Under the pieces are notes generated by a model, which made no database searches, had not been told where the DNA came from, and saw only the letters and a list, made by a program, of their open reading frames with translations. From positions 1 through 60,681 of IMG/VR virus record IMGVR_UViG_3300037343_000006: a stretch of DNA of 60,681 nt; one strand, written 5' to 3'. This DNA comes from a virus (lineage: Duplodnaviria > Caudoviricetes). Positions 4,667 through 38,181 of the stretch are shown in pieces (within the stretch, counting starts at the first letter, position 1; every line of letters starts with the position of its first letter). A program made the position numbers and the translations under genes.

Positions 4667-7600
4667 ATGGCGCGGTATAATCTCACGCTTAAGGATGGCT
4701 CTGCGTTTGAAGTAGAGGCACCAGCAGGCGCTTCCCAAGCGGAAATCCTACGCCGCGCCAATCAACAGATGTCCGTCCGCGGGATGAACGAGCGTAGGGA
4801 CGCACGCACTGCAGAGCGCCAAACGCAACTTGCCGAATTGGACGCAATGCGGCCCCCGCCGCGGGAGCCAGAAACTGGCTTCCTCGGGGATTTAGTCGGG
4901 GGTTTCGGCGCGGGCGTCGTCAATATCGGCGAGACTGCAGCCCTCGGTGCCGCTACGCTGCTCGACGAGGAGCAAGAACTCGCAGCGCGTGAGCGCATCC
5001 AGAACGCGGCCAGCGCCATTCGGCCCAGTATGGGCGACGAGGAAGACCTCGCCTACAAAATCGGCTCTACCTTCGGCTCGATCGCCGGGTTTATCGGTGC
5101 AGCTGCCACCGTTACGTATGGTGCGGGCGCTCTCGGTCTTGGCGTTGCCGGTGCAGGTATCGCGGGCCTTGTCGGCGCGGGTACCCTTGGTGTTGGTGCA
5201 GCTACTGGTGAGGCAAGTGAGCGTGCTCGCGCCGCCGGAGCCACCCAAGAAGAACGCAACCGCGCAATTATGCAAGCCATCCCAGTCGGTGCTTCCGAAG
5301 TGCTTCCGCTTCGCCGTATTCTGGGCAAGCTAACCGGCGACCTCGGCGAAGAATTGGTTCAGACTTTCCGCCAGCGCGTAGTCAGCGCGTTGCGCACTGG
5401 TGGCGAAGAAGCCGCACAGGAAGCCGCAGCGGGCATCGCACAGAACCTTATCGAGCGTGGCTACAACATCGACCAAGCCGTCCTCGAGGGTGCGGGCGAA
5501 GCAGCTGCCTTGGGCGGCGGTGCCGGTGCGACCATTCAGGTACTCGTGGACTTGTTTGCTGGCCGCCGTGCGCGCGGTGCCACTCCACCACCAGAAGGTC
5601 CAGCGCAAGGTGAGTTGTTCCCCGGCGCTGATCTTGGCCAAGCGCCCACCCGTGTCATGGGTGACCAGCGTGAGATGTTCCCCGAGGAAGACTTGGGTAT
5701 GGCACCCGAGCGTCCGGACGAGCGCCAAGGCGAGTTGTTTAGCGCGCAGGATCAACAATCGGCAGCGTTTGCCCGCACCGCGCGCCGCGCGGATGAAGAG
5801 CGCGCCCGCCTTATGGAGCGCCCCATATCTGAGTTCGAGTCGGCAGGTGACCCGTTCTTAGAGCGTACCAAAGCCGAAAGAGATGCAGCTCGTGCGGGGA
5901 TAGCTGGGCTACAAAGGCCCGAGCAGCCGGAGCCTGAACAGCGGGATATGATCCGCGAACTCGAAGCGGCGACAATCCCCGAAGAAGAACAGCGTGCTCA
6001 GGCAGCCGCCCGTGAGCGTGAAGGACTTCGCGCCGCTGGACGTGGTGACGAAGCTGCATTTGAGCAGCCTGACTTGTTTGCACTGCAGCAAGAACAAGAG
6101 CGCCGTCGGCTTGGACCTGAAGAGCTGCGTCGGCCCGACCAGTTCATGGATGTGCCGGAAGCGGCGGAGACAGTTACGCCCGAGCAGCCCGATGCCATGG
6201 GTGATCTCGTGGATATGGCGGACCAGCGCCAGCGCACAGCGGCAGAAGATGCCGACATCGCAGACCAGCTCGCCGCTATCGACGCTGAAGAAGGCGCGCA
6301 GCAGCAACAAGCCGCGGCACTGCGCGCTGAGTCAGACATTGAGACCATCACCGGCCAGCAGGAAACGCAGCGGCAGCAAGCCACCGAGCAAGGTCGGCGT
6401 AGCATCCTACAAGATGTTATTAAGAAGACCCCGAGCCGCAACTACAACCGCGTGTCTCGGATGTACGAGGATGCGCTCACAAAGGCGGGTTATCAGGGCG
6501 ATAAAGCCAAGCCGACTGCGGCGGAAATCCAAACTATTCAGCGTGCTGTTAACGTACAGCGGGCCGAGCGCCCTGAGCCAGTGTCGCCTGTCGCAGAGCC
6601 GATTAAGCTGCCGCCTGAAGCTACGCAGCTGCAGGAGATGGAGTCGCGCATCCCTGAGCGCGCAGCGCAGCGCGAGCCAGAACAGCTTGGTATGCCCGGT
6701 ATCCGTCGCCGGATTCAAGAAGCACCCGCGCGTGAGGGCATGGCCCCAGAGGCGCAAGCCGCACCAGAAACTGTAACCGACGAGATGCTTGACCAGATGG
6801 GTATCGCTCCGCGGTCGCCCATTCGGCAGCGCCTACGTGGTAAGGACTTAAATGACCCTACAACGCGCGAAATCCTTACTTCTTTTGCGAATCAGCCACG
6901 TACTTCTCAGACTGCAGAGTTGGGTATTAGCCGCCGCCTTGAGGGGGTTCCCGAAGAGCAACCCGACCTCTTCGCACCTAGCGGAAGACGTAGCGCAGCT
7001 GCGCAGCCAGCTCCGCAACAAACACCTGCAGGCCCCGCAGCTCAGCCAGCACCTAGTGCGCAGCAGAACGCCCCGCAACAACTTGAACTTTTCCCAGAGA
7101 CCGCACAAGGGGTTACAGATGGCACTGCAGCACCTAACCAGCAAAGAGATCGAGCAAGCGTTCGCGGTGGTGGACGCGGCGTGGCAGGACCCGGAGGGGT
7201 CGGAGGTACGGGTGGAGGTGCCAGAACACCTACAGCACCTGAGCCCAGAGGACTGGGAGCACGTATCGCGAGCGCTGTACCTGCTGCAGCACCAAAAGCT
7301 GCAGAGCGTAGTACACTAGGGGAAGGCGGTACGCGTCGTAATGTTATGCCGACGCTGCCGCGGCGTCCGATAATCGACCCAAAAACTCTAAAGCCAATCC
7401 GCGAAGAGCGTGTCGGCCCGACGTCTCGTGCTCTTGCACCGCGCGAAAAGATTTCAGCAAAATCTGAACCCAAGGTCAGCGGTGACCAAGTCACCAAGCA
7501 GCTCGCGGACTGGTACGAGGCTAACGTCTCGGCACCGGCGAAGCGGTTTGTCAAAGAGCTCGGGATGTCGATCACAAGTCCGTTAACGATCGCCGACAAG

Positions 7601-10600
7601 GCCGCTATCTTAGCGCAGCTCAACACGAAGTCGACGAAGGAAAACAAGACCACCATCGGTGCGCTTAAGAAGTATCTCGGCAACTACCCTGACCCGGCCC
7701 TCGGCCTGCAGGATGCAATCGACGACGTAGTGGCGCAGAAGCCTAACTTCCGCCGTACAGAAGACATGACCGACGGAGAGTCGGAGTTTTTTGGGGCGAC
7801 CAAGGACGGTAAGACCCCCGCACGGGGTAAGAACGCAGCCCAGTACGTGCTTGATTGGGCCAGCAAGAATATGTCTGAAGCCACCAAACGGTGGACCGCT
7901 GGTAAAATCGTCGAGTCGAAGAACGCCATGCAGGCTATAGAGGCGTTTGAGTCTACTGACCTTGTCGCTACGCGGCGCGAACTAGAGAAAGCCTTCGAGG
8001 GTGGGTTCGACCCTACCAAGGATGCAGACAACAAGCGCCTCGCCGACGTGCTGGAGAAGCTGGGACTCGATGAGTCCGACCCGATGGTCCGCGGCATGCT
8101 CTATAAGGGGGGCATGTTTAACATGGCGGTGCCCCCGTCGCGCCACCCGCTGTCACAAGTCACTGTAGCGCTACTCCGTAAGGGCGATCTCGCAGGAGCG
8201 CTCCGCTCCGTCGCTGCATCCAGTGCCGATCCCGAAGTCGCTGCCGTGGCAGAGAAGCTAGCCAAGGTCGTTGGTGATACCAAAGTCGAGGTGGTTAAGT
8301 CAATCGCCCCCGGCGTACTTGGGCGGTTTACTGCGGCAACTAATACGATCTCGTTGGCCGAACCCACAAACAAATTGAAGCTCGATGGTGGCCTTAACAC
8401 CCACGTGCTCCTGCACGAGATGACGCACGCTGCCACGGCGTTCACACTTGTAAACAAGGGCCACCCGCTGACCCGCAAGCTGAAGAAAATCTTCGAAGAA
8501 ACCAAAGAGTTTATGCCCACTGCGTATGGCTCTACCAGTATCGAAGAGTTCGTGGCCGAAGCATTTTCAAACCCCGAGTTCCAGTCCATGCTGGCGGGGC
8601 TCAAGATTAAGGGCGACCCACTCACCCCGTTCGCAAAGATCAAAGCTGCGATCTCCAACTTCCTACGCTCGCTTGTCGGTAAACCTGTTAAGCCGGTTCA
8701 ATCGGCGTTGGAGCAAACCACCAGCATCATCGACAACATCCTCGCCCCCGCACCGGGTAACATCGGCACCGGTGAGTTCTTCATGCTGTCGCCAGTAGCT
8801 GCAGGTAAGCGCATCGCGGAAATGCTTGGGGACATACAAAAGCAGTCCAAGCCAGTGACTAAGGAGTTTGCGCAGAAATTTGCAGGCAATACCCGCGAGT
8901 TCTTGCGGGGCACCGCCACTGACAAAGCGAAGCGCGGCATGCTCGGCTTCCTACCATCGCAGGCGGTGGCAGACGTTGCTGAACGCAGCGGTATCAAAGG
9001 TGCCATGGACCTGCACAAGCTCATGGAAGAGCAGCGTGGCGCTATCAACAAGTCAGACCAAGCCGTTGAAGGCGTCCTAAAGTCTGTCGCCAACTGGGTG
9101 AAGTCACATCAAAACCAAGTCGATGCGTTGAACCGTGTGGTCTATAAGAGCACCATCGAGCAGGTTGACCCCTCGAAGCCGATATCAGCGTACGCCAACG
9201 ACCCAGAAAAAGCTAAGGCGTGGCGTGACATGCGCAACGACTGGCGCGCGCTGTCCTCTACGGGTGGCGACAAGGTGTACGCCCAGATGCGCGACACGTA
9301 CAAAAAACAGTACGAGAAGATGCGCGACGTAATCTACGGCAAGATCGACGAGACGATCACCGATGAAGCTGCGCGTAAGAAGCTGAAGAACGAGGTGTAC
9401 GCACGCCTGTTTGAGAGCGGCACCATCGAGCCTTACTTCCCACTGACACGTGCGGGTAACTACTGGCTGTCCTATGTTGCCGAGGGTGAGTTCACCGTCG
9501 AAGCATTTGAGACCATGGCAGAGCGGGACCGTGCGATAACTGACCTAAAGGCTGATACATCAGTTAAGGACGTCGAGAAGTTCGTCAACATAAACAACGC
9601 AAGCTACGCCAAAGCACCGCCGTCGTCGTTCGTGGGTCAGACACTGCAAACCCTTCGGGCAAATAGGGTGCCCGATGACGTGCAAGCTGAGATCATGCGG
9701 CTGTTCATCGAGACGCTGCCAGAGACGTCGTTTGCTAAATCGCTCCAGCGGCGTAAGGGCACCGCAGGGTACCAAGAAGATGCGATCTTCGCGCTCAAGA
9801 CCAAAGCCTTCGATCTTGGTCGGCAGGTGGAGCGCCTGCGGTACAGCGCCAAACTCCGCACCCTGCAGGATAGCATCAATGAGGATAACCGGCCCAACCT
9901 GACAGAAGAAAACAAGTACATCGTAGACGAGCTAAACCTGCGCGCCGACTTCGCACGTAACCCTCCGGGGGATGGGCTGGCCCAAGCTGCTAACCGAGCT
10001 GCGTTTGTCTTCACGATCGGCTTCAACGCTTCGTCCGCTGTGGTCAACCTCTCGCAGCTGCCTATGTTCGTCTACATGATGTTTGCTGGCAAGTATGGAT
10101 ACGGCGCTGCAGGCCGCGCCATCATGGATGCGTCTAAGCTCGTTACCAGCAGTGGGTTCAATCGTAAGAGCGACATGGTCGCCCCCTACGGCAATGAGAA
10201 GAACATCAAGGTCCGCGCGATGCCAAGCATCGACAACTACTTTGAGCTCGATGCCAACGGCGACTACGTCGTGCGCAAGGACTTGGACTTAGAGCCTGAA
10301 GTCATCGCTAAGGTTGAAGAGCTAAAGCCGCTTGTTGCGATGATGGCGGCTCGTGGCCAGCTAAACCGGTCGCTGTTTGCCGATAACCTTGGCATCGACA
10401 GCTCTGGCCGGGAGCGCGGTATTATCGACATGGCTACCGCGGCTTCGGCGTTCATGTTCCACAACGTAGAAGTCTTTAACCGGCAGGTCACAGCCATCTC
10501 GGCGTATCAGCTTAAGCTCGCGCGCCTTAAGAAAGCAGAGCCAACCCTGTCCACTACAGAGATGCAGACAAAGGCCGCAGAGCAGGCATTGGAGGATGCG

Positions 10601-11635
10601 CAAAGGACTAACGGCGGGTCGGTGCTTGAGACTGCGCCACGGCTCAGCCAGCAGGGGATCGGGCGCGTCGCGCTTATGTATAAGGCCTACGGCATCCAGA
10701 TGTACTACTCCATGTTTAAGACCGTCCGCGACGGTATGGAGGCGCACTTCGCCGGGGATAAAGACGCGCGCAATGAAGCACTTCGGCAGTTCGCTGGGGT
10801 GACTGGGGCGTCGTTCCTACTGGCAGGAGTCGTCGGTATGCCACTGGCGCGGGAACTCTTGCAGCTTATGAACCTGCTGTTCTTTGACGAAGAAGAAGAC
10901 ACCGCGGAGACACAGCTGCGCAAAGCGATCGGCGAAGGGTTCTACAAAGGCCCCGCAACTGCGCTTCTCGGCGTCGACTTGTCCAGCCGTATCGGTCTGT
11001 CGGGCCTCATCCTGCAGGCTAACCGGTTTAACCACGATGCCTCGCTCGAAGAGGACGTGTTCCACTATCTTGGGGGCCCTGCGTGGAGTATCATTTCTGG
11101 GTTTAATCGGGGTCGCCAAGACATTATGAACGGTGAGATCGAGCGTGGTGTTGAGGCCATGATCCCTGCCGGTATCCGCAACATGTATCAGGCTGCGTTC
11201 CGCTTCCCCAACGACGAAGGCATCTTGACCCGCCGCGGCGACCCGATCATGGACGACCTGTCCTTCGGCCAACTTGCTGCGAAGTTTGTCGGCTTCGCCC
11301 CTGCCGAGTACACCCGTACGCAGGAGATGAACCAGCAGACCAAGAACGTCGACCGGTCAGTAAACAGCGCACGGACTACGATACTGCGTCGTTACTATGT
11401 GGCTACCCGCATGGGTGACTCCGACGAGCGGCGTGCCATGATGCAGCGCATCAAGGACTTTAACCGTAGGCATCCCACGGCCCGTATCGACGCTGACTCC
11501 CTGCGTCGGTCTATGCGGCAGCACATGGAGACATCAGCTACGATGTATAACGGCATCTCGATCAGCCCGAACATGCGCCGTGCGTTGGATGAGAGCCGTG
11601 ACGAGTGGAACCAAGGGTTCCAACTCTTTGATTAA
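4667..11635 (+). CDS. Large polyvalent/ejection protein with zincin metallopeptidase and PLxRFG-type region
   Basis: 2322 aa. Gly/Ala hydrophobic N-terminal segments; LLHEMTH (HExxH) with downstream EEFVAEAFSNPEF; YFPLTRAG (PLxRFG-like); multiple QxxLF motifs. Confidence 0.8.
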   Translation: MARYNLTLKDGSAFEVEAPAGASQAEILRRANQQMSVRGMNERRDARTAERQTQLAELDAMRPPPREPETGFLGDLVGGFGAGVVNIGETAALGAATLLDEEQELAARERIQNAASAIRPSMGDEEDLAYKIGSTFGSIAGFIGAAATVTYGAGALGLGVAGAGIAGLVGAGTLGVGAATGEASERARAAGATQEERNRAIMQAIPVGASEVLPLRRILGKLTGDLGEELVQTFRQRVVSALRTGGEEAAQEAAAGIAQNLIERGYNIDQAVLEGAGEAAALGGGAGATIQVLVDLFAGRRARGATPPPEGPAQGELFPGADLGQAPTRVMGDQREMFPEEDLGMAPERPDERQGELFSAQDQQSAAFARTARRADEERARLMERPISEFESAGDPFLERTKAERDAARAGIAGLQRPEQPEPEQRDMIRELEAATIPEEEQRAQAAAREREGLRAAGRGDEAAFEQPDLFALQQEQERRRLGPEELRRPDQFMDVPEAAETVTPEQPDAMGDLVDMADQRQRTAAEDADIADQLAAIDAEEGAQQQQAAALRAESDIETITGQQETQRQQATEQGRRSILQDVIKKTPSRNYNRVSRMYEDALTKAGYQGDKAKPTAAEIQTIQRAVNVQRAERPEPVSPVAEPIKLPPEATQLQEMESRIPERAAQREPEQLGMPGIRRRIQEAPAREGMAPEAQAAPETVTDEMLDQMGIAPRSPIRQRLRGKDLNDPTTREILTSFANQPRTSQTAELGISRRLEGVPEEQPDLFAPSGRRSAAAQPAPQQTPAGPAAQPAPSAQQNAPQQLELFPETAQGVTDGTAAPNQQRDRASVRGGGRGVAGPGGVGGTGGGARTPTAPEPRGLGARIASAVPAAAPKAAERSTLGEGGTRRNVMPTLPRRPIIDPKTLKPIREERVGPTSRALAPREKISAKSEPKVSGDQVTKQLADWYEANVSAPAKRFVKELGMSITSPLTIADKAAILAQLNTKSTKENKTTIGALKKYLGNYPDPALGLQDAIDDVVAQKPNFRRTEDMTDGESEFFGATKDGKTPARGKNAAQYVLDWASKNMSEATKRWTAGKIVESKNAMQAIEAFESTDLVATRRELEKAFEGGFDPTKDADNKRLADVLEKLGLDESDPMVRGMLYKGGMFNMAVPPSRHPLSQVTVALLRKGDLAGALRSVAASSADPEVAAVAEKLAKVVGDTKVEVVKSIAPGVLGRFTAATNTISLAEPTNKLKLDGGLNTHVLLHEMTHAATAFTLVNKGHPLTRKLKKIFEETKEFMPTAYGSTSIEEFVAEAFSNPEFQSMLAGLKIKGDPLTPFAKIKAAISNFLRSLVGKPVKPVQSALEQTTSIIDNILAPAPGNIGTGEFFMLSPVAAGKRIAEMLGDIQKQSKPVTKEFAQKFAGNTREFLRGTATDKAKRGMLGFLPSQAVADVAERSGIKGAMDLHKLMEEQRGAINKSDQAVEGVLKSVANWVKSHQNQVDALNRVVYKSTIEQVDPSKPISAYANDPEKAKAWRDMRNDWRALSSTGGDKVYAQMRDTYKKQYEKMRDVIYGKIDETITDEAARKKLKNEVYARLFESGTIEPYFPLTRAGNYWLSYVAEGEFTVEAFETMAERDRAITDLKADTSVKDVEKFVNINNASYAKAPPSSFVGQTLQTLRANRVPDDVQAEIMRLFIETLPETSFAKSLQRRKGTAGYQEDAIFALKTKAFDLGRQVERLRYSAKLRTLQDSINEDNRPNLTEENKYIVDELNLRADFARNPPGDGLAQAANRAAFVFTIGFNASSAVVNLSQLPMFVYMMFAGKYGYGAAGRAIMDASKLVTSSGFNRKSDMVAPYGNEKNIKVRAMPSIDNYFELDANGDYVVRKDLDLEPEVIAKVEELKPLVAMMAARGQLNRSLFADNLGIDSSGRERGIIDMATAASAFMFHNVEVFNRQVTAISAYQLKLARLKKAEPTLSTTEMQTKAAEQALEDAQRTNGGSVLETAPRLSQQGIGRVALMYKAYGIQMYYSMFKTVRDGMEAHFAGDKDARNEALRQFAGVTGASFLLAGVVGMPLARELLQLMNLLFFDEEEDTAETQLRKAIGEGFYKGPATALLGVDLSSRIGLSGLILQANRFNHDASLEEDVFHYLGGPAWSIISGFNRGRQDIMNGEIERGVEAMIPAGIRNMYQAAFRFPNDEGILTRRGDPIMDDLSFGQLAAKFVGFAPAEYTRTQEMNQQTKNVDRSVNSARTTILRRYYVATRMGDSDERRAMMQRIKDFNRRHPTARIDADSLRRSMRQHMETSATMYNGISISPNMRRALDESRDEWNQGFQLFD
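7119..7319 (+). CDS. Putative nested small gene (66 aa) in the +1 frame of the polyvalent protein
   Basis: AAGGGG upstream of ATG 7119; natural-looking amphipathic product (MALQHLTSKEIEQAF...KLQSVVH), while the host frame is G/A/R/P low complexity here. Confidence 0.5.
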   Translation: MALQHLTSKEIEQAFAVVDAAWQDPEGSEVRVEVPEHLQHLSPEDWEHVSRALYLLQHQKLQSVVH

Positions 11636-11665
11636 AAAAGCCCCCCACGGTGAGGTGGGGGGCTA
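11634..11665. terminator. Intrinsic terminator at the convergence of the two arms
   Basis: AAAAAA-GCCCCCCAC-ggtgag-GTGGGGGGC: 9-bp GC stem with a U-tract on the minus strand. Confidence 0.8.
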
Positions 11666-11725
11666 GTCAGGGAGGAGGAGAACATACAGAAACCTAGCGG
11701 CTTCTCCATGAACAACTTCACTGTA

Positions 11726-11950
11726 TCACAACGTACGCCACACGCGTAGCCCAAATCGACCGTCCTCAATACGCTCCTGCACCTGCATAGAAATCTTACG
11801 CCGCGCAGCAATTTTGCTAAGCTGCTTCTCTGCGAGCGCGGTGTTAACGCAGGGTACGAACACTGACATGCCCACCTTCATACCGTCCCAAGGGATGATG
11901 ATCCGAACACCATCGGGATGCAGGTCGTCCAGTCTAGGTATCTGAACCAT
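11726..11950 (-). CDS. Hypothetical protein
   Basis: 74 aa, GAGG RBS, overlaps the end of the primase gene; IPWDGMKVGMSVFVPC...GLRVWR. Confidence 0.6.
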   Translation of the reverse strand: MVQIPRLDDLHPDGVRIIIPWDGMKVGMSVFVPCVNTALAEKQLSKIAARRKISMQVQERIEDGRFGLRVWRTL

Positions 11951-14756
11951 CGGCATCCTCTACATCCAACTCAAAATCGACCTCGATTACATCCACCGGC
12001 GGTAGGCGCAGGTTGGTGCCTTTGGTGATCCGCATCTTACGCTTCGTAGCGCCCTTGTTTTTCACGAGGTCGAGGATGCACGACGAGTAGTCGATCTGCT
12101 GCTCAAGGCACCATGTCTTAAACGGTTTCAGCAGGATAAAGGCTTTCTTGGTGTCGGACTCGTACCGCGCGACCAGCTTCGTACGCGGGTTTGCCTCTGG
12201 CATAATCAGGGCGTCTATGCCGTTGACGTCGCCGTTGCGCTTGATGATGAGTAGGTTGCCGTTATGCTCGGCAAAGAAGTCCGCCAAAATCTGGCTAGAA
12301 GATGTTGTCATGTCTTCGGTAACGCCTTGGTTATAGCGCACCAGCTCAATCGCAAACTTGAACATCGCTGCTGTATCGTAGTTCACAAGCCCGAGCTTCT
12401 TGGCAATGATGGCAGCGGTCATGGTCTTAGTGATGTACTCCGACCAGAAGCGATTCGACGAACCCAAGTTACACTTAATGTCGACGCGCTCACGCACCTT
12501 CTCTTCCAGTGCGTTTATGCCGTCCATGTTCTGCATGTAGTGCTGGACAAACACCACCCCAGCGTGGCCGTAGTGTAGCGGCACGTTCTTTGAGAAGTCG
12601 TCAGTCATCGCCTTGTCACCACTGCCGTCGAAGAACTTATCAACGCGCGCTTCCAGCACTCGCTGGGCCTCTGCTTTCGGCGCGGCTTTCGCCAATGTGA
12701 TCTTTTCCACGAGGCTCATGTTGCCGGTCGAGAGGGCTAGAAACTTCCACTCAAACCCACGGGTGCGCTCTTGATTCGCCCCGCCTTCCATGCGGCCCCG
12801 CTGCATGCCCTCGGTAATCGCGTAAGTCATGTCCGATGCAGCCAAGGGCCGCATGTTAGTGATCTCATCGGTAGCGAACAAGATGTTCTTGTACACCTCT
12901 GCACGGTTCATACGGTGGTTCATGGTGTCCCGCTCTTTCAGCAGCAGACCCATTGGGCGACCCCACACAGATAGTGCCATGAACATAGCCGTGGTCTTCC
13001 CAAGGCCGGAGTCCTTGCTAAACATGTGCAGGAGCCCGCCGTTCATCGGCGAGGAGTGCATCAGCGCGCTGCCGAAACTGGCGCACAGTGCGAATTGATA
13101 GAGCTCCATGCCCGGCTTGTTAAAGAACTCTGCGTTCTGTCTCCACCCGTCGAGGGTGCCGCGCGGGGTAAGCGCGTCGAACAAGCCTGCGGTCTTAATG
13201 GATGCAGGGTTAAAGTCTATTTTGTTTGGGAATATCTCCCTGTCGCCAAGGATAAACGAGCCGCAGTTATCATCAGCCCAGCCGAACTGTGCGCGCGCTA
13301 TGTCTGCTGCGCCTTGCTGCTGCAGCTCTTCGATCCAGCGGATAGTGTAGGCCATAAGTTCCTCCAGATTTTTACCGAAGGCGGTGACGCCCTTGGCCCC
13401 AATAGCTTTACGAAATTCGTCCTTAGACGTTACAGCGATCTGCGGGACGGTGAACTCACGCACCCCGTCCTTTGGTAGATGCAGCCGGAACACCAGCGCG
13501 TCGGCGTCGCCGTCAGTCACCCGCCGCACAATGTATAGGTCGTTATGGTATATGCACTTCTCAATGGTGTCGCCGTCAGCGTCTTCGCCTCGGACATAGA
13601 TGCCCCCGTTGGCCCCACGGAAGTAGGGCTTGGGGTATGTCGGTATAACATAAATCTCTGGCTGCGCAGCGGGCGCGGCTTTGGGGCTCGGTGCGACCTC
13701 AATCACGTTGTCTGCTTCAGTGGCCTCACGGGTTCGTGAGCCAAGGACAACCGGCGACTTGATCTTACCCCACAGCGGGCACCCGCTGCAGACGCCGTCG
13801 TTGTACTCGTCGAACGTTGTGCAGAGGTATGGGCCCTTGATGCGGTCCATCTTATTGAACATCTCGTCCGGCGTGAACTCAGGATGCCGCTGCGAAATCT
13901 TAGTAGCTGCGCTATCCCCATCGGCACAATGCTTGGCGATCGACAGCCCTGCCCGCCACAGCGGCTCCGACATAGTCTCTTGATTGCGGTAGATATAGGC
14001 CAGCTGCATGCAGCCTTTACCCTTCGCGGTCTTCAGCATGATGTCCTTGAAGTAATGCTCGCGGTTGCCCATGAGCGCGTCCATCACAGCGTTGCTACCG
14101 CTGACCGGCGTAAACTTCTTTGGAACTGGTATCGGGTCGTTGCCCATAAGCTCTGAAAATTTATCGAAAGATACAGGCGCTACCGCGTCCATACCTAAAA
14201 CCCTAACGCGTTTAGGTGGGTTGTCCTTATGGTTATGAGTGCCCGGCATGCGTAGGATACGCGCTGCATCAGACGTTACTGCGGGGTCAGCCTTGAAGCC
14301 ATGCTCCTTGCACTTTGCCTTGAGGCGCTCAGCCACAGGCACCCACTCGGCCAGCGTCACGTCTTCATTGAGCGGCCAGTAGACATGTATCCCTCGGCCC
14401 GAGTCTACCGTAATCGGCTTAGGCAACCGCATCACTTTGCAGAAGCGGCGGAGCTCTTGCAGTGCGGTTGCTTGGTCAGGAAACTTCTTGGGGTTATCTG
14501 CTTCGCAGTCGAGGTCGAGGTAGAACGCGCGCTTGCGCGCTATGTTGTCAGCTTCTCGGGAAGCATCGGTGCCGAAAGTGCCGACCGCATAGTAAGAATT
14601 GTAGCCGTTCTGGTCAAACGCCGTGTTGGCGTCCATGAGCTGATCTATCGAGTCGTAGAACTTTTGTTTACGGCGGCTCGTTTCCGCATGTATTGCAAGG
14701 ACGCAGTACCAGCCTCCGCGGGCCAGCACGCTCTGCAAAAATCTTTTTGTTTCCAT
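11934..14756 (-). CDS. AEP-type primase fused to a DUF927-type helicase/replication domain
   Basis: 940 aa; FYLDLD, DSGRGIHVYW, RILRMPGTHN (AEP motifs); Cys cluster (C..F....C..C); P-loop SGLGKTT and DEIT. Confidence 0.85.
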   Translation of the reverse strand: METKRFLQSVLARGGWYCVLAIHAETSRRKQKFYDSIDQLMDANTAFDQNGYNSYYAVGTFGTDASREADNIARKRAFYLDLDCEADNPKKFPDQATALQELRRFCKVMRLPKPITVDSGRGIHVYWPLNEDVTLAEWVPVAERLKAKCKEHGFKADPAVTSDAARILRMPGTHNHKDNPPKRVRVLGMDAVAPVSFDKFSELMGNDPIPVPKKFTPVSGSNAVMDALMGNREHYFKDIMLKTAKGKGCMQLAYIYRNQETMSEPLWRAGLSIAKHCADGDSAATKISQRHPEFTPDEMFNKMDRIKGPYLCTTFDEYNDGVCSGCPLWGKIKSPVVLGSRTREATEADNVIEVAPSPKAAPAAQPEIYVIPTYPKPYFRGANGGIYVRGEDADGDTIEKCIYHNDLYIVRRVTDGDADALVFRLHLPKDGVREFTVPQIAVTSKDEFRKAIGAKGVTAFGKNLEELMAYTIRWIEELQQQGAADIARAQFGWADDNCGSFILGDREIFPNKIDFNPASIKTAGLFDALTPRGTLDGWRQNAEFFNKPGMELYQFALCASFGSALMHSSPMNGGLLHMFSKDSGLGKTTAMFMALSVWGRPMGLLLKERDTMNHRMNRAEVYKNILFATDEITNMRPLAASDMTYAITEGMQRGRMEGGANQERTRGFEWKFLALSTGNMSLVEKITLAKAAPKAEAQRVLEARVDKFFDGSGDKAMTDDFSKNVPLHYGHAGVVFVQHYMQNMDGINALEEKVRERVDIKCNLGSSNRFWSEYITKTMTAAIIAKKLGLVNYDTAAMFKFAIELVRYNQGVTEDMTTSSSQILADFFAEHNGNLLIIKRNGDVNGIDALIMPEANPRTKLVARYESDTKKAFILLKPFKTWCLEQQIDYSSCILDLVKNKGATKRKMRITKGTNLRLPPVDVIEVDFELDVEDADGSDT

Positions 14757-35712: not shown

Positions 35713-38181
35713 ATGGCTATCGAAAAAGGCATTTACAGCGCCCCAATGGGCATTGACGACGATGAGATGGAGGGCATGGACCTCGAATCTGATCTGGAGA
35801 TTCAGATCGTCGACCCAGAGGCGGTTATTCTGGACGACGGCAGCATGGAGGTGATCCTGTTTCCGGACGCCGAACCCGTGGATGAGGCCGAATTTGACGC
35901 AAACCTAGCGGATTTCATGGAAGATGGGGACCTGCGGGACCTGTCTAGCGACCTCGTGGGGCTGATCGAGGCCGACATGCAGAGCCGGAAGGAGTGGGTT
36001 GAGTCCTACGTCGAGGGTCTGGACGTGCTGGGATTCAAGTACGAGGAGCGGACGCAGCCTTGGGAGGGTGCCTGTGGGGTGTTTTCTACGATTCTGGCTG
36101 AAGCAGCCATCCGGTTCCAAGCTGAGACTATGTCTGAGACTTTCCCAGCCGCTGGGCCGGTAAAGGTCAAGGTGCTTGGCGAGGAGAGCAAGGAGAAGCT
36201 GGAGGCCGCGGAGCGCGTCAAGGCCGACATGAACTACGAGATCACCGAGCGGATGGTCGAGTACCGGTCCGAGCACGAGCGGATGCTCTATTCTCTGGGT
36301 CTGGCGGGCTCTGCGTTCAAGAAAGTGTACTTCGACCCGAACTTTGGGCGTCAAGTGGCGCTCTATATACCAGCAGAAGACGTTATCGTGCCTTACAGCG
36401 CGAGTCACATCGAGACGGCAGAGCGCGTTACGCATGTGATGCGTAAAACCAAGAACGAGATGAAGAAGCTGCAGGCTGCAGGCTTCTATCGGGACATCGA
36501 GCTGGGCGAGCCGGTGCCGTACCACTCCGACGTTGAGGAGAAAAAGGCCGAGGATGGCGGGTTCAGCCTGACTGACGACAACCGCTACGCACTCTATGAG
36601 TGCCATGTAGAGATGTGCGTCCCCGGAGTGGACGACGAGGATGACATGCCGGTGCCGTACGTCGTCACTATCGAGCGGGGCTCAGGTGAGGTGCTGGCGG
36701 TACGCCGCAACTACGAAGAAGACGCCGAAATCCCCCTGAAAAATCAGTTTTTTGTCCATTACCCCTACGTTCCGGGGTTTGGGTTCTACGGACTGGGGCT
36801 GATTCACATCATCGGGGGCTATTCACGCGCAGGAACGTCGCTGATTCGCCAGTTGGTCGACGCTGGCACGCTATCTAACCTGCCGGGGGGCCTGAAAACT
36901 CGCGGCCTGCGTATTAAGGGCGACGATAGCCCGATCGAGCCAGGCGAGTTCAAGGATGTAGACGTCCCGTCGGGCTCTATCCGCGATAATATCATGCCGC
37001 TGCCCTATAAAGAGCCGTCGCAGACGCTCCTACAGCTCTTGGACCGCATCACACAGGAAGGCCGCCGCCTCGGGGCTATCAGTGATCTAAATATCTCCGA
37101 CATGTCAGCAAACGCACCGGTGGGTACGACGCTGGCGCTGCTTGAGCGCACCCTGAAGCCAATGGCTGCGGTGCAGTCGCGTGTGCACTACGCGATGAAG
37201 CAAGAGTTCAAGATGCTCAAGGCGATCATCGCCGAGCATGCCCCAGAAGAGTACTCCTACCAGCCCACTCGTGGTGAGGTGGGCGCACGCCGGTCGGACT
37301 ATATGATGGTGGACGTGATCCCCGTCAGTGATCCTAACAGCTCGACCATGGCGCAGCGCGTTGTGCAGTATCAGGCTGTGCTGCAGATGTCCCAGCAGGC
37401 CCCGCAGATTTACAACCTGCCAGTCCTCCACCGCGAGATGATGGAGGTGCTGGGTATCAAGAACGCGGACAAGATCGTGCCGACAAAGGCCGATGCCAAG
37501 CCGACTGACCCGGTCAGCGAGAACATGGACGCGCTGATTGGCAAGCCGATGCGGTCGTTTATCTATCAGGACCACCAAGCGCATATTGCGACCCACATGT
37601 CGTTTATGCAGGACCCGATGATTGCACAGATGATCGGCCAGAACCCGCAGGCGCAGCAGATCATGACGTCGTTGCAGGCACACATCGCCGAGCACCTTGG
37701 GTTCCAGTACCGGCAGCAGATCGAGGAGAAGCTCGGGGCACCGCTGCCTGATCCCAACGCAGAGCTGCCGCAGGAAGTCGAAGTCCAGCTGTCCCGCCTC
37801 GTCGCCGATGCCGGTCGCCAGCTCACGCAGGCTAACCAGCAGCAGCAAGCTCAGCAGCAAGCCCAGCAGCAGCAGCAAGACCCCATGTTCCAGCTCCAGC
37901 AGGCTGAGGTCCAGATCAAGGCGCAGGAGGTCCAGCGCAAGGCCGCGAAGGATCAGGCTGATGCCCAGTACAAGGGTGAACAGCTTAAGCTGCAGACAGC
38001 TAAGAGCATGACGGACGCGATGCTCAAGGCCGAGGAGCTGAAAGTCGACAAGACCCAGCTGGCGATCGACGCTGAAGTAAAGGGCGTCGAGATGAGCCGG
38101 GCCCGCCGCGAAGCTCAGGATAAGACTGCTATCGAGGTCGCTAAGCTCATGCAGCAGAACAAGCCAAGAGGAGATAAATAA
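35713..38181 (+). CDS. Portal protein
   Basis: 822 aa after TerL; AIRFQAE, GSAFKKVYFD, GFYGLGL; Gln-rich coiled-coil C-terminus reminiscent of P22-like portals. Confidence 0.85.
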   Translation: MAIEKGIYSAPMGIDDDEMEGMDLESDLEIQIVDPEAVILDDGSMEVILFPDAEPVDEAEFDANLADFMEDGDLRDLSSDLVGLIEADMQSRKEWVESYVEGLDVLGFKYEERTQPWEGACGVFSTILAEAAIRFQAETMSETFPAAGPVKVKVLGEESKEKLEAAERVKADMNYEITERMVEYRSEHERMLYSLGLAGSAFKKVYFDPNFGRQVALYIPAEDVIVPYSASHIETAERVTHVMRKTKNEMKKLQAAGFYRDIELGEPVPYHSDVEEKKAEDGGFSLTDDNRYALYECHVEMCVPGVDDEDDMPVPYVVTIERGSGEVLAVRRNYEEDAEIPLKNQFFVHYPYVPGFGFYGLGLIHIIGGYSRAGTSLIRQLVDAGTLSNLPGGLKTRGLRIKGDDSPIEPGEFKDVDVPSGSIRDNIMPLPYKEPSQTLLQLLDRITQEGRRLGAISDLNISDMSANAPVGTTLALLERTLKPMAAVQSRVHYAMKQEFKMLKAIIAEHAPEEYSYQPTRGEVGARRSDYMMVDVIPVSDPNSSTMAQRVVQYQAVLQMSQQAPQIYNLPVLHREMMEVLGIKNADKIVPTKADAKPTDPVSENMDALIGKPMRSFIYQDHQAHIATHMSFMQDPMIAQMIGQNPQAQQIMTSLQAHIAEHLGFQYRQQIEEKLGAPLPDPNAELPQEVEVQLSRLVADAGRQLTQANQQQQAQQQAQQQQQDPMFQLQQAEVQIKAQEVQRKAAKDQADAQYKGEQLKLQTAKSMTDAMLKAEELKVDKTQLAIDAEVKGVEMSRARREAQDKTAIEVAKLMQQNKPRGDK

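Follow-up and report, generated by a model that had tools for sequence, protein, structure and literature searches.

We have analyzed the complete stretch of 60,681 nucleotides in IMG/VR virus record IMGVR_UViG_3300037343_000006 (Duplodnaviria; Caudoviricetes), which we call the window. An open reading frame (ORF) at positions 4667-11635 of the plus strand translates to a single protein of 2322 amino acids (P0001), and a charged linker in this giant protein carries six pentapeptides that resemble the motifs with which bacterial proteins bind the sliding clamp, DnaN. The sliding clamp is a hub for the enzymes of bacterial replication and repair, and a drug target. We consider it somewhat probable that the six peptides are short linear motifs that dock the giant protein, a putative virion-delivered polyvalent protein of the PLxRFG type, multivalently on the DnaN of the host. 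If so, use of the clamp would extend to proteins that are delivered with the DNA, ahead of phage gene expression, and a first function would have been assigned to the N-terminal third of a PLxRFG polyvalent protein, a part that otherwise has no annotation.

It was only recently that phages were shown to use the clamp through clamp-binding motifs, the case being MuC, a small transcription factor (PMC12867686). Our literature search found no paper joining clamp binding with polyvalent proteins, and a search on proteins that are ejected from or internal to the virion returned nothing relevant. In Iyer et al. 2017 (PMC5512222), which deals with polyvalent proteins, the word 'clamp' does not appear in the main text.

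The linker peptides and published clamp-binding motifs

An earlier note on this DNA had reported the six peptides, with the first three spaced exactly 20 residues apart, and both translation and a regular-expression scan reproduce this arrangement (Table 1). The pattern Q.[DE][LM]F is found six times in residues 296-900 where the composition predicts 0.017 occurrences, and even the looser pattern Q..[LM]F is expected just 0.10 times; these ratios are to be read in the light of a pattern that was set after the data had been seen, and of three tandem copies that arose by duplication and are not independent. None of 5000 shuffled sequences reached six motifs, the maximum being two. Half of the phenylalanine residues between residues 300 and 900 (6 of 12) lie within the motifs. 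In the remaining 69 ORFs, with 15,875 residues in all, Q..[LM]F matches four times.

The peptides can be compared directly with those for which clamp binding has been studied. The consensus for binding the beta clamp is QL[SD]LF, and the motif of UmuC is QLNLF (PMC3716654). The E. coli clamp is bound by QLDLF at ~0.1 μM. Binding depends critically on positions 1, 4 and 5 of this peptide, to some extent on position 2 and not on position 3, and alanine at position 2 weakens binding to the E. coli clamp without abolishing it (bioRxiv 10.64898/2026.05.27.728225). The same study identifies QLELF as the peptide of B. subtilis Pol I and reports that it bound both clamps. In MuC of phage Mu the C-terminal clamp motif is QPDLF; an L-to-A change in either MuC motif abolished both the two-hybrid interaction with DnaN and lethality, and the consensus for the Mor/C family is Qx[D/E][L/M]F (PMC12867686). 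All six motifs of the giant protein match the Mor/C consensus. Three of the six are identical, letter for letter, to peptides that bind DnaN experimentally, since QPDLF (present twice) occurs in MuC and QLELF in B. subtilis Pol I. All six motifs here, the 92 instances from the family described below and the alignment columns have Gln in position 1 and Leu/Met-Phe in positions 4 and 5, and the positions kept in the family are thus those that are critical for binding the clamp.

Sequence flanking the first three motifs is repeated with them, the tandem unit having the family consensus Q[GRA]E[LM]FPx[ED]DLGxAP. The 60-nucleotide units share just 32/60, 28/60 and 26/60 bases in pairwise comparisons. 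Tandem Repeats Finder (TRF), run over positions 5400-7400, detected no DNA repeat at the motifs and only a 6-bp microrepeat at 6223-6245. The tandem motifs 1-3 appear from these comparisons to be the product of a duplication, which is old because the units share so few bases and leave no repeat that TRF can detect.

The region that contains the motifs had been described in the earlier note as charged and probably disordered, and this description holds up. The residues D, E, K and R make up 29% of residues 296-900, and hydrophobic residues 17%, compared with 31% hydrophobic after residue 1100. In an AlphaFold2 (AF2) model of residues 1-560, built on a 12-row alignment and of low confidence overall (mean predicted local distance difference test, pLDDT, of 52.5), residues 298-352 form coil with pLDDT values of ~28-38. 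Motifs 1 and 2 lie in this coil of very low confidence, as accessible linear motifs would be; motif 3 opens a weakly predicted helix, and motif 4 is placed in a break between helices. The model suggests that the motif-bearing linker is probably disordered. Following motif 6 there is a Gly/Arg-rich stretch, RGGGRGVAGPGGVGGTGGGAR, at residues 838-860 (7178-7246), which is partly conserved in relatives.

Complex models of residues 305-480 (19 rows) with two copies of DnaN scored 0.36, 0.35 and 0.27, against 0.48 for a control with an unrelated protein, using E. coli DnaN from Swiss-Prot as a stand-in that may differ from the clamp of the host; these scores speak on neither side of the question of binding.

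Peptides with a similar core occur in other proteins of the window. The ORF at positions 2-1060 contains a Q-A-x-L-F core at residues 323-327 (968-982) near its C-terminus, IFATPQQAALFPSPY. Most orthologs keep this core, as QASLF, QSSLF, QAGMF, QAQLF, QESLF or QEELF, and the most distant have lost it; this could be one more clamp-like peptide, or simply belong to a folded C-terminus. The portal ORF (35713-38181) has QDPMF at residues 722-726 (37876-37890), within a Gln-rich C-terminal stretch, and this may be due to chance.

Conservation of the peptides among relatives

Relatives were collected in two ways. A scan of viral contigs with six peptide patterns, one of which was motif 2, gave 19 loci with 33-98% identity, and an exhaustive phmmer search with residues 296-520 matched only 21 representatives among 1.84 billion. 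Nine of these 21 have a length like that of the query (2067-2508 residues) and 12 are shorter (95-1426 residues). The sequences of 12 of the 21 were retrieved for comparison, and all 12 carry the conserved N-terminal domain of the family. As far as these sequences go, the linker appears confined to this protein family. Removal of the near-duplicates L001, L002 and L017 left a family set of 38 sequences.

Strict matches to Qx[DE][LM]F before the zincin-like region number 92 in the 38 sequences, against a single match to the reversed pattern, and at least one is present in 31 of the 38. The commonest spellings are QPDLF (30), QGELF (24), QLDLF (9) and QREMF (7). Position 2 is occupied by P in 32 cases, G in 28, L in 15, R in 7, A in 5 and other residues in 5. 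There are 40 tandem units in the family, and a spacing of 20 residues accounts for 20 of the 46 spacings of 40 residues or less.

The individual motifs differ in how widely they are kept. Motif 4, in the form [FE/FA]QPDLF, is retained in 17 of the 19 rows of alignment A1, and the surrounding residues 440-490 are the most conserved block of the linker. Motif 5 is kept in eight of nine closer sequences, exactly in seven and as QADLPLF in L007, with a gap in L010. Motif 6 is kept in L003, L005 and L008 and appears as QLNLF in P0003; it is deleted in L004, L009 and L019. For conservation, the flanks of motif 6 score 1-2 of 9, and the stretches around motifs 5 and 6 score 1-3 of 9.

The position of motif 3 has several spellings. 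The sequence is QGELF here, QLNLF in L004, L007, L009 and L010, and QLSLF in L005. In the phmmer series QLDLF occupies this position in P0006, P0007, P0008, P0009, P0013, P0014, P0016 (twice) and P0022, and further relatives have QMDLF, QFDLF or QGDLF. The spellings QLNLF, QLSLF and QLDLF converge on the canonical clamp motif.

Among the loci there is synonymous codon variation inside motifs 2, 4, 5 and 6, which indicates that selection acts on the peptide. Taken with the alignments, this presents the motifs as conserved islands in an otherwise variable linker.

The cassette of motifs 1-3 is present in 13 of the 19 rows of A1. At approximately residues 305-400 of L008:8001-14912 and L003:8001-14855 we find an alternative cassette, APEGIAGL..DQR...DERGGVSLEEMQ..V.QTQ[IV]PLPELE... 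Since a different conserved cassette can occupy the site of motifs 1-3, the linker is modular and accepts two or more kinds of insert. Within the alternative cassette, Q[IV]PLPEL resembles the hexapeptide clamp motif Q-phi-x-L-x-L without fitting it. In L002:8001-14975, which is 98% identical, the giant gene is split into different frames, the longest ORF being 8231-14023; these breaks are probably an error of sequencing or assembly and not biology.

Protein architecture, phage genome and a possible mechanism

The giant protein has a recognizable C-terminal half and an N-terminal region for which database searches offer little (Table 1). The conserved N-terminal domain matches no Pfam family, a hit to SseC at E = 3.1 being noise, and its neighbors in the Atlas are clusters of viral hypothetical proteins only. 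In the AF2 model it consists of a beta-hairpin and helices, with pLDDT of 82-87 for residues 1-50 and lower values beyond. Residues 128-189 (5048-5233) of this conserved domain form Gly/Ala-rich hydrophobic helices that are possible membrane segments; such segments would be in keeping with an ejection protein inserting itself into the envelope.

The zincin-like signature is strongly conserved, the H, E and H and the two downstream E residues being invariant in 15 of 15 rows of alignment A3. An AF2 model of this region (mean pLDDT 70) has three strands, a helix bearing HExxH and a later helix. Three strands, an HExxH helix and a later helix with Glu constitute the core of the metallopeptidases (MPTases) described by Iyer et al. 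(PMC5512222). Database matches to the region are weak. Pfam gives SprT-like at E = 0.0056 and 17 bits, below the cut-off of 25.6, and the best Foldseek match is to M34 zincins at E = 0.045 with a template modeling (TM) score of 0.24, none reaching E ≤ 0.001. There were no sequence matches in the PDB.

The alignment to NF032893 in the C-terminal region spans model positions 2-680 of 681, with PLTRAG at residues 1592-1597, and the C-terminal part also matches the 'DarB-like' phrog_10089. A tblastn search of cultured phages matched 33 records; among the 30 matches listed, identity is 23-31% and all start at residue 1226 or later. In Pfam searches of the giant protein no methylase, helicase, polymerase or other recognized payload enzyme was detected. 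A seventh match to the regular expression, QLPMF at residues 1797-1801 (10055-10069), falls within SSAxVNLSQxPxF, a hydrophobic part of the PLxRFG domain, and 17 of the 20 sequences listed preserve it in the form Q[LIV]P[LM]F. It is outside the array and looks like a buried or membrane-like element rather than a linear motif.

The phage-type polyvalent proteins are predicted to be packaged and injected, and in the virion RNA polymerase (vRNAP) of phage N4 the C-terminal 1,400 residues, peptidase domain included, are needed for encapsidation (PMC5512222). By analogy, we infer that residues 1150-2322 of the giant protein would serve for packaging and ejection, and that its N-terminal 1100 residues would be the payload. 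Its packaging in the capsid and its injection are suggested by the position of the gene and the PLxRFG/LPD39/zincin architecture.

Table 1. Positions of the main features, as residues of the giant protein and nucleotides of the window
Feature	Residues	Nucleotides	Strand	Remarks
N-terminal helical domain	1-296	4667..5554	+	Conserved; many invariant columns in alignment A2
Tandem cassette, motifs 1-3	310-360	5594..5746	+	20-residue period
Motif 1, QGELF	314	5606-5620	+	Regular-expression scan
Motif 2, QREMF	334	5666-5680	+	Regular-expression scan
Motif 3, QGELF	354	5726-5740	+	Regular-expression scan
Motif 4, QPDLF (as FEQPDLF)	467	6065-6079	+	Centre of block at residues 440-490 (5984..6136)
Motif 5, QPDLF	765-769	6959-6973	+	Context VPEEQPDLFAP
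Motif 6, QLELF	805-809	7079-7093	+	Island in Pro/Ala/Gln-rich, otherwise non-conserved stretch
Zincin-like signature	HEMTH 1250-1254; helix EEFVAEAFSNP 1293-1303	8414..8575	+	
LPD39 domain	1449-1576	9011..9394	+	Pfam PF18858, E = 2.4e-13, 50.7 bits against cut-off 27
PLxRFG ('tail-700') domain	1589-2304	9431..11578	+	NCBIfam NF032893, 366.4 bits against cut-off 100
Replication genes		11.9-33 kb	-	DUF927 primase-helicase; SNF2 helicase; family A DNA polymerase and separate exonuclease; HNH endonuclease
Late/virion genes		from 33.5 kb	+	Terminase, portal, capsid protein, tail fibre, amidase, virion structural protein

The 60,681-bp record is complete, with direct terminal repeats, and has ~56% G+C. 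The late/virion block of the plus strand wraps over the terminal repeat and continues through four ORFs without family matches to the giant ORF, which is its final gene. There is no match in the complete record to the DnaN domains (PF00712, PF02767, PF02768) or to the model for T4 gp45 (PF02916), in agreement with the earlier note, which had recognized no phage-encoded clamp. Because the phage record lacks a clamp gene, any clamp partner would be that of the host. The motif Q..[LM]F does not occur in the family A polymerase, the primase-helicase or the SNF2 helicase of this phage, and the idea of a phage replisome riding on the host clamp was dropped for this reason.

The terminases nearest in sequence (45-48% identity) belong to an uncultured gammaproteobacterial phage and to the Pelagibacter phages HTVC027P and HTVC023P; these matches do not fix the host of a phage with 56% G+C. 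No cultured phage gives a near DNA match to the record, no tRNA genes are present in it, and no relative of the giant protein was found among 185,579 species genomes.

On the reading that we favor, the 2322-residue protein would be made late and packaged by means of its C-terminal zincin, LPD39 and PLxRFG part, and would enter the cell together with the DNA. After entry the N-terminal third would expose a flexible linker, and each Qx[DE][LM]F would insert its Leu/Met-Phe into subsite I and its Gln into subsite II of the client cleft of the clamp. Avidity would be provided by four to six peptides, two or three of them at the 20-residue spacing. The likeliest consequence would be that the giant protein, and anything that it holds, becomes tethered to DNA-loaded clamps and competes locally with the host clients. 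Tethering and local competition are likelier than sequestration in bulk because the virion delivers few copies; bulk sequestration of the clamp by a few injected copies is unlikely. At the time of late synthesis an abundant protein could titrate clamps, as overproduced MuC does.

The earlier note had proposed that a co-injected protein multivalently captures host DnaN, either blocking host replication or bringing its zincin domain to replisomes. Capture of DnaN is supported in part, by the fit to the clamp pattern, by conservation and by the lack of a phage clamp, but the downstream block of replication and delivery of the zincin are speculation. A block of replication by the giant protein is doubtful on grounds of stoichiometry at the few copies delivered.

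A wider proposal can be made, which we hold to be possible but on balance doubtful. The clamp cassettes may be portable and exchangeable 'clamp hooks', such that at genome entry several motifs would seize DNA-loaded clamps and either tether the genome and its escort protein to the replisome or jam the client cleft. Jamming of the client cleft would stall host replication, repair and the inactivation of DnaA ahead of phage gene expression. Were this true, phage ejection proteins in general would have the sliding clamp as a first-minute target.

Alternative explanations and comparison with known systems

A number of observations weigh against docking on the clamp. About 14 residues are conserved in each tandem unit, beyond the need of a clamp pentapeptide; the FPx[ED]DLGxAP that follows on the C-terminal side of the pentapeptide is conserved in 40 tandem units and is unexplained by clamp binding; it may be the sign of a different partner or of a second one. 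The aliphatic residue that is preferred at position 2 is present in just one of the six motifs, the rest having Pro (two), Gly (two) or Arg (one), and motif 4 lies within a conserved block of ~45 residues between predicted helices rather than in bare linker. Seven of the 38 family sequences have no strict motif; four of them (L011, L012, L014 and L015) have QPDLL at the position of motif 4, no motif is left in L013 or L018, and in L006 the region itself is missing. In six of the 19 rows of A1 (L008, L003, P0003, P0012, P0020 and P0021) the cassette of motifs 1-3 is replaced by an unrelated one. Conservation in homologs, which the earlier note had put forward as a check, is seen for the most part: there are conserved islands in most relatives, but the cassette is absent from these six and the most distant keep QPDLL or nothing. 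Retrieval was moreover biased toward sequences that bear motifs, the query for the P series being the linker and one pattern for the loci being motif 2. The motif Q..[LM]F is absent from the PLxRFG giants of SopranoGao (4369 residues) and POI1126 (4841 residues). Neither the 185,579 species genomes nor tRNA genes provide evidence of the host, and the reading of the motifs as clamp-binding is drawn from sequence.

Several of these features would suit motifs that are directed to some other partner. This could be the portal, the scaffold or the capsid interior, with the motifs serving as a signal for packaging or targeting, or it could be a different hub in the host; the resemblance to clamp motifs would then be coincidental or partial. 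This we regard as unlikely, but as the rival to be taken most seriously. The extended conservation of the unit Q[GRA]E[LM]FPx[ED]DLGxAP, the prevalence of Gly, Pro or Arg over aliphatic residues at position 2 and the embedding of motif 4 in its block all argue for it, as does the apparent limitation of the linker to one family (21 of 1.84 billion representatives), which would be expected of an interaction internal to the phage. However, motif 3 drifts through QLDLF, QLSLF, QLNLF, QMDLF, QFDLF, QGDLF and QGELF, keeping the clamp-critical positions and passing through the textbook consensus, and close relatives (~70-79% identity) exchange the cassette of motifs 1-3, unlike what is expected of an essential assembly signal. 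No alternative partner for this pattern was found or is known to us. It is improbable, in our judgement, that the motifs are instead processing sites, cut at Qx[DE]|[LM]F by the zincin of the giant protein or by some other protease so as to free pieces before or after injection. The conserved HExxH...E signature is in the same polypeptide, and many zincins favor a hydrophobic residue directly after the cut. Autoproteolysis of polyvalent proteins by such peptidases has been proposed by Iyer et al., but N4 vRNAP, the best studied of the proteins whose C-terminal region is comparable, enters the virion without being processed (PMC5512222). Nothing ties this zincin to the sequence Qx[DE][LM]F, no prohead protease was recognized among nine phage proteins scanned with Pfam, and cleavage sites would not predict convergence on QL[SDN]LF. 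The explanation that we already disfavor, and to which we give very little credence, is that the motifs are functionless remnants of tandem duplication in a region of low complexity. Motifs 1-3 clearly derive from a duplicated 20-residue unit, and the pattern was picked after the data had been seen. But the peptides are conserved down to ~30-45% identity with synonymous codon turnover, motifs 4-6 are outside the repeat, the tandem units share only 26-32 of 60 bases, and motifs in the forward direction outnumber those in reverse by 92 to 1.

Docking on the host clamp has its closest parallel in the MuC/Mor activators (PMC12867686). Like the phage of the giant protein, theirs has no clamp of its own, and they have more than one near-consensus motif, QHDLF and QPDLF in MuC. 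No homology to Mor/C was noticed in the giant protein, though no search was aimed at it. MuC, a small transcription factor that binds DNA, is produced in the cell, and its binding and function are experimental, whereas the giant protein is known from sequence alone and carries an array of six motifs in the linker of a 2322-residue PLxRFG/zincin protein encoded in the virion gene block. With the cellular clients of the clamp (Pol II, III, IV and V, B. subtilis Pol I, MutS and Hda) the giant protein has in common Gln at position 1, Leu/Met-Phe at positions 4 and 5 and location in a flexible region. Some spellings are identical with those of cellular clients, namely QLELF here and QLNLF, QLSLF and QLDLF in relatives. 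Cellular clients usually have one or two motifs with a position 2 that is mostly aliphatic, whereas here there are up to six, with mostly Gly, Pro or Arg. The conserved FPxxDLGxAP tail of the tandem copies also sets the giant protein apart from them.

The phage-type polyvalent proteins, such as P1 DarB and N4 vRNAP (gp50), are likewise giant, encoded among virion genes and provided with a zincin-like HExxH followed by a large C-terminal domain (PMC5512222). The giant protein also shares with them LPD39, but unlike them it contains no recognized payload enzyme that we could find. The PLxRFG giants of cultured phages of ~60 kb (Klebsiella SopranoGao, Ochrobactrum POI1126, Serratia Parlo and others) share the C-terminal domain at 23-31% identity over residues 1410-2309, and their N-terminal parts are unrelated. 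SopranoGao and POI1126 have no Q..[LM]F in 9,210 residues, and with no motifs in these two cultured-phage examples the array was rejected as a general property of PLxRFG giants. We place the giant protein in the PLxRFG and phage-type polyvalent families, and regard it as a candidate client of the sliding clamp.

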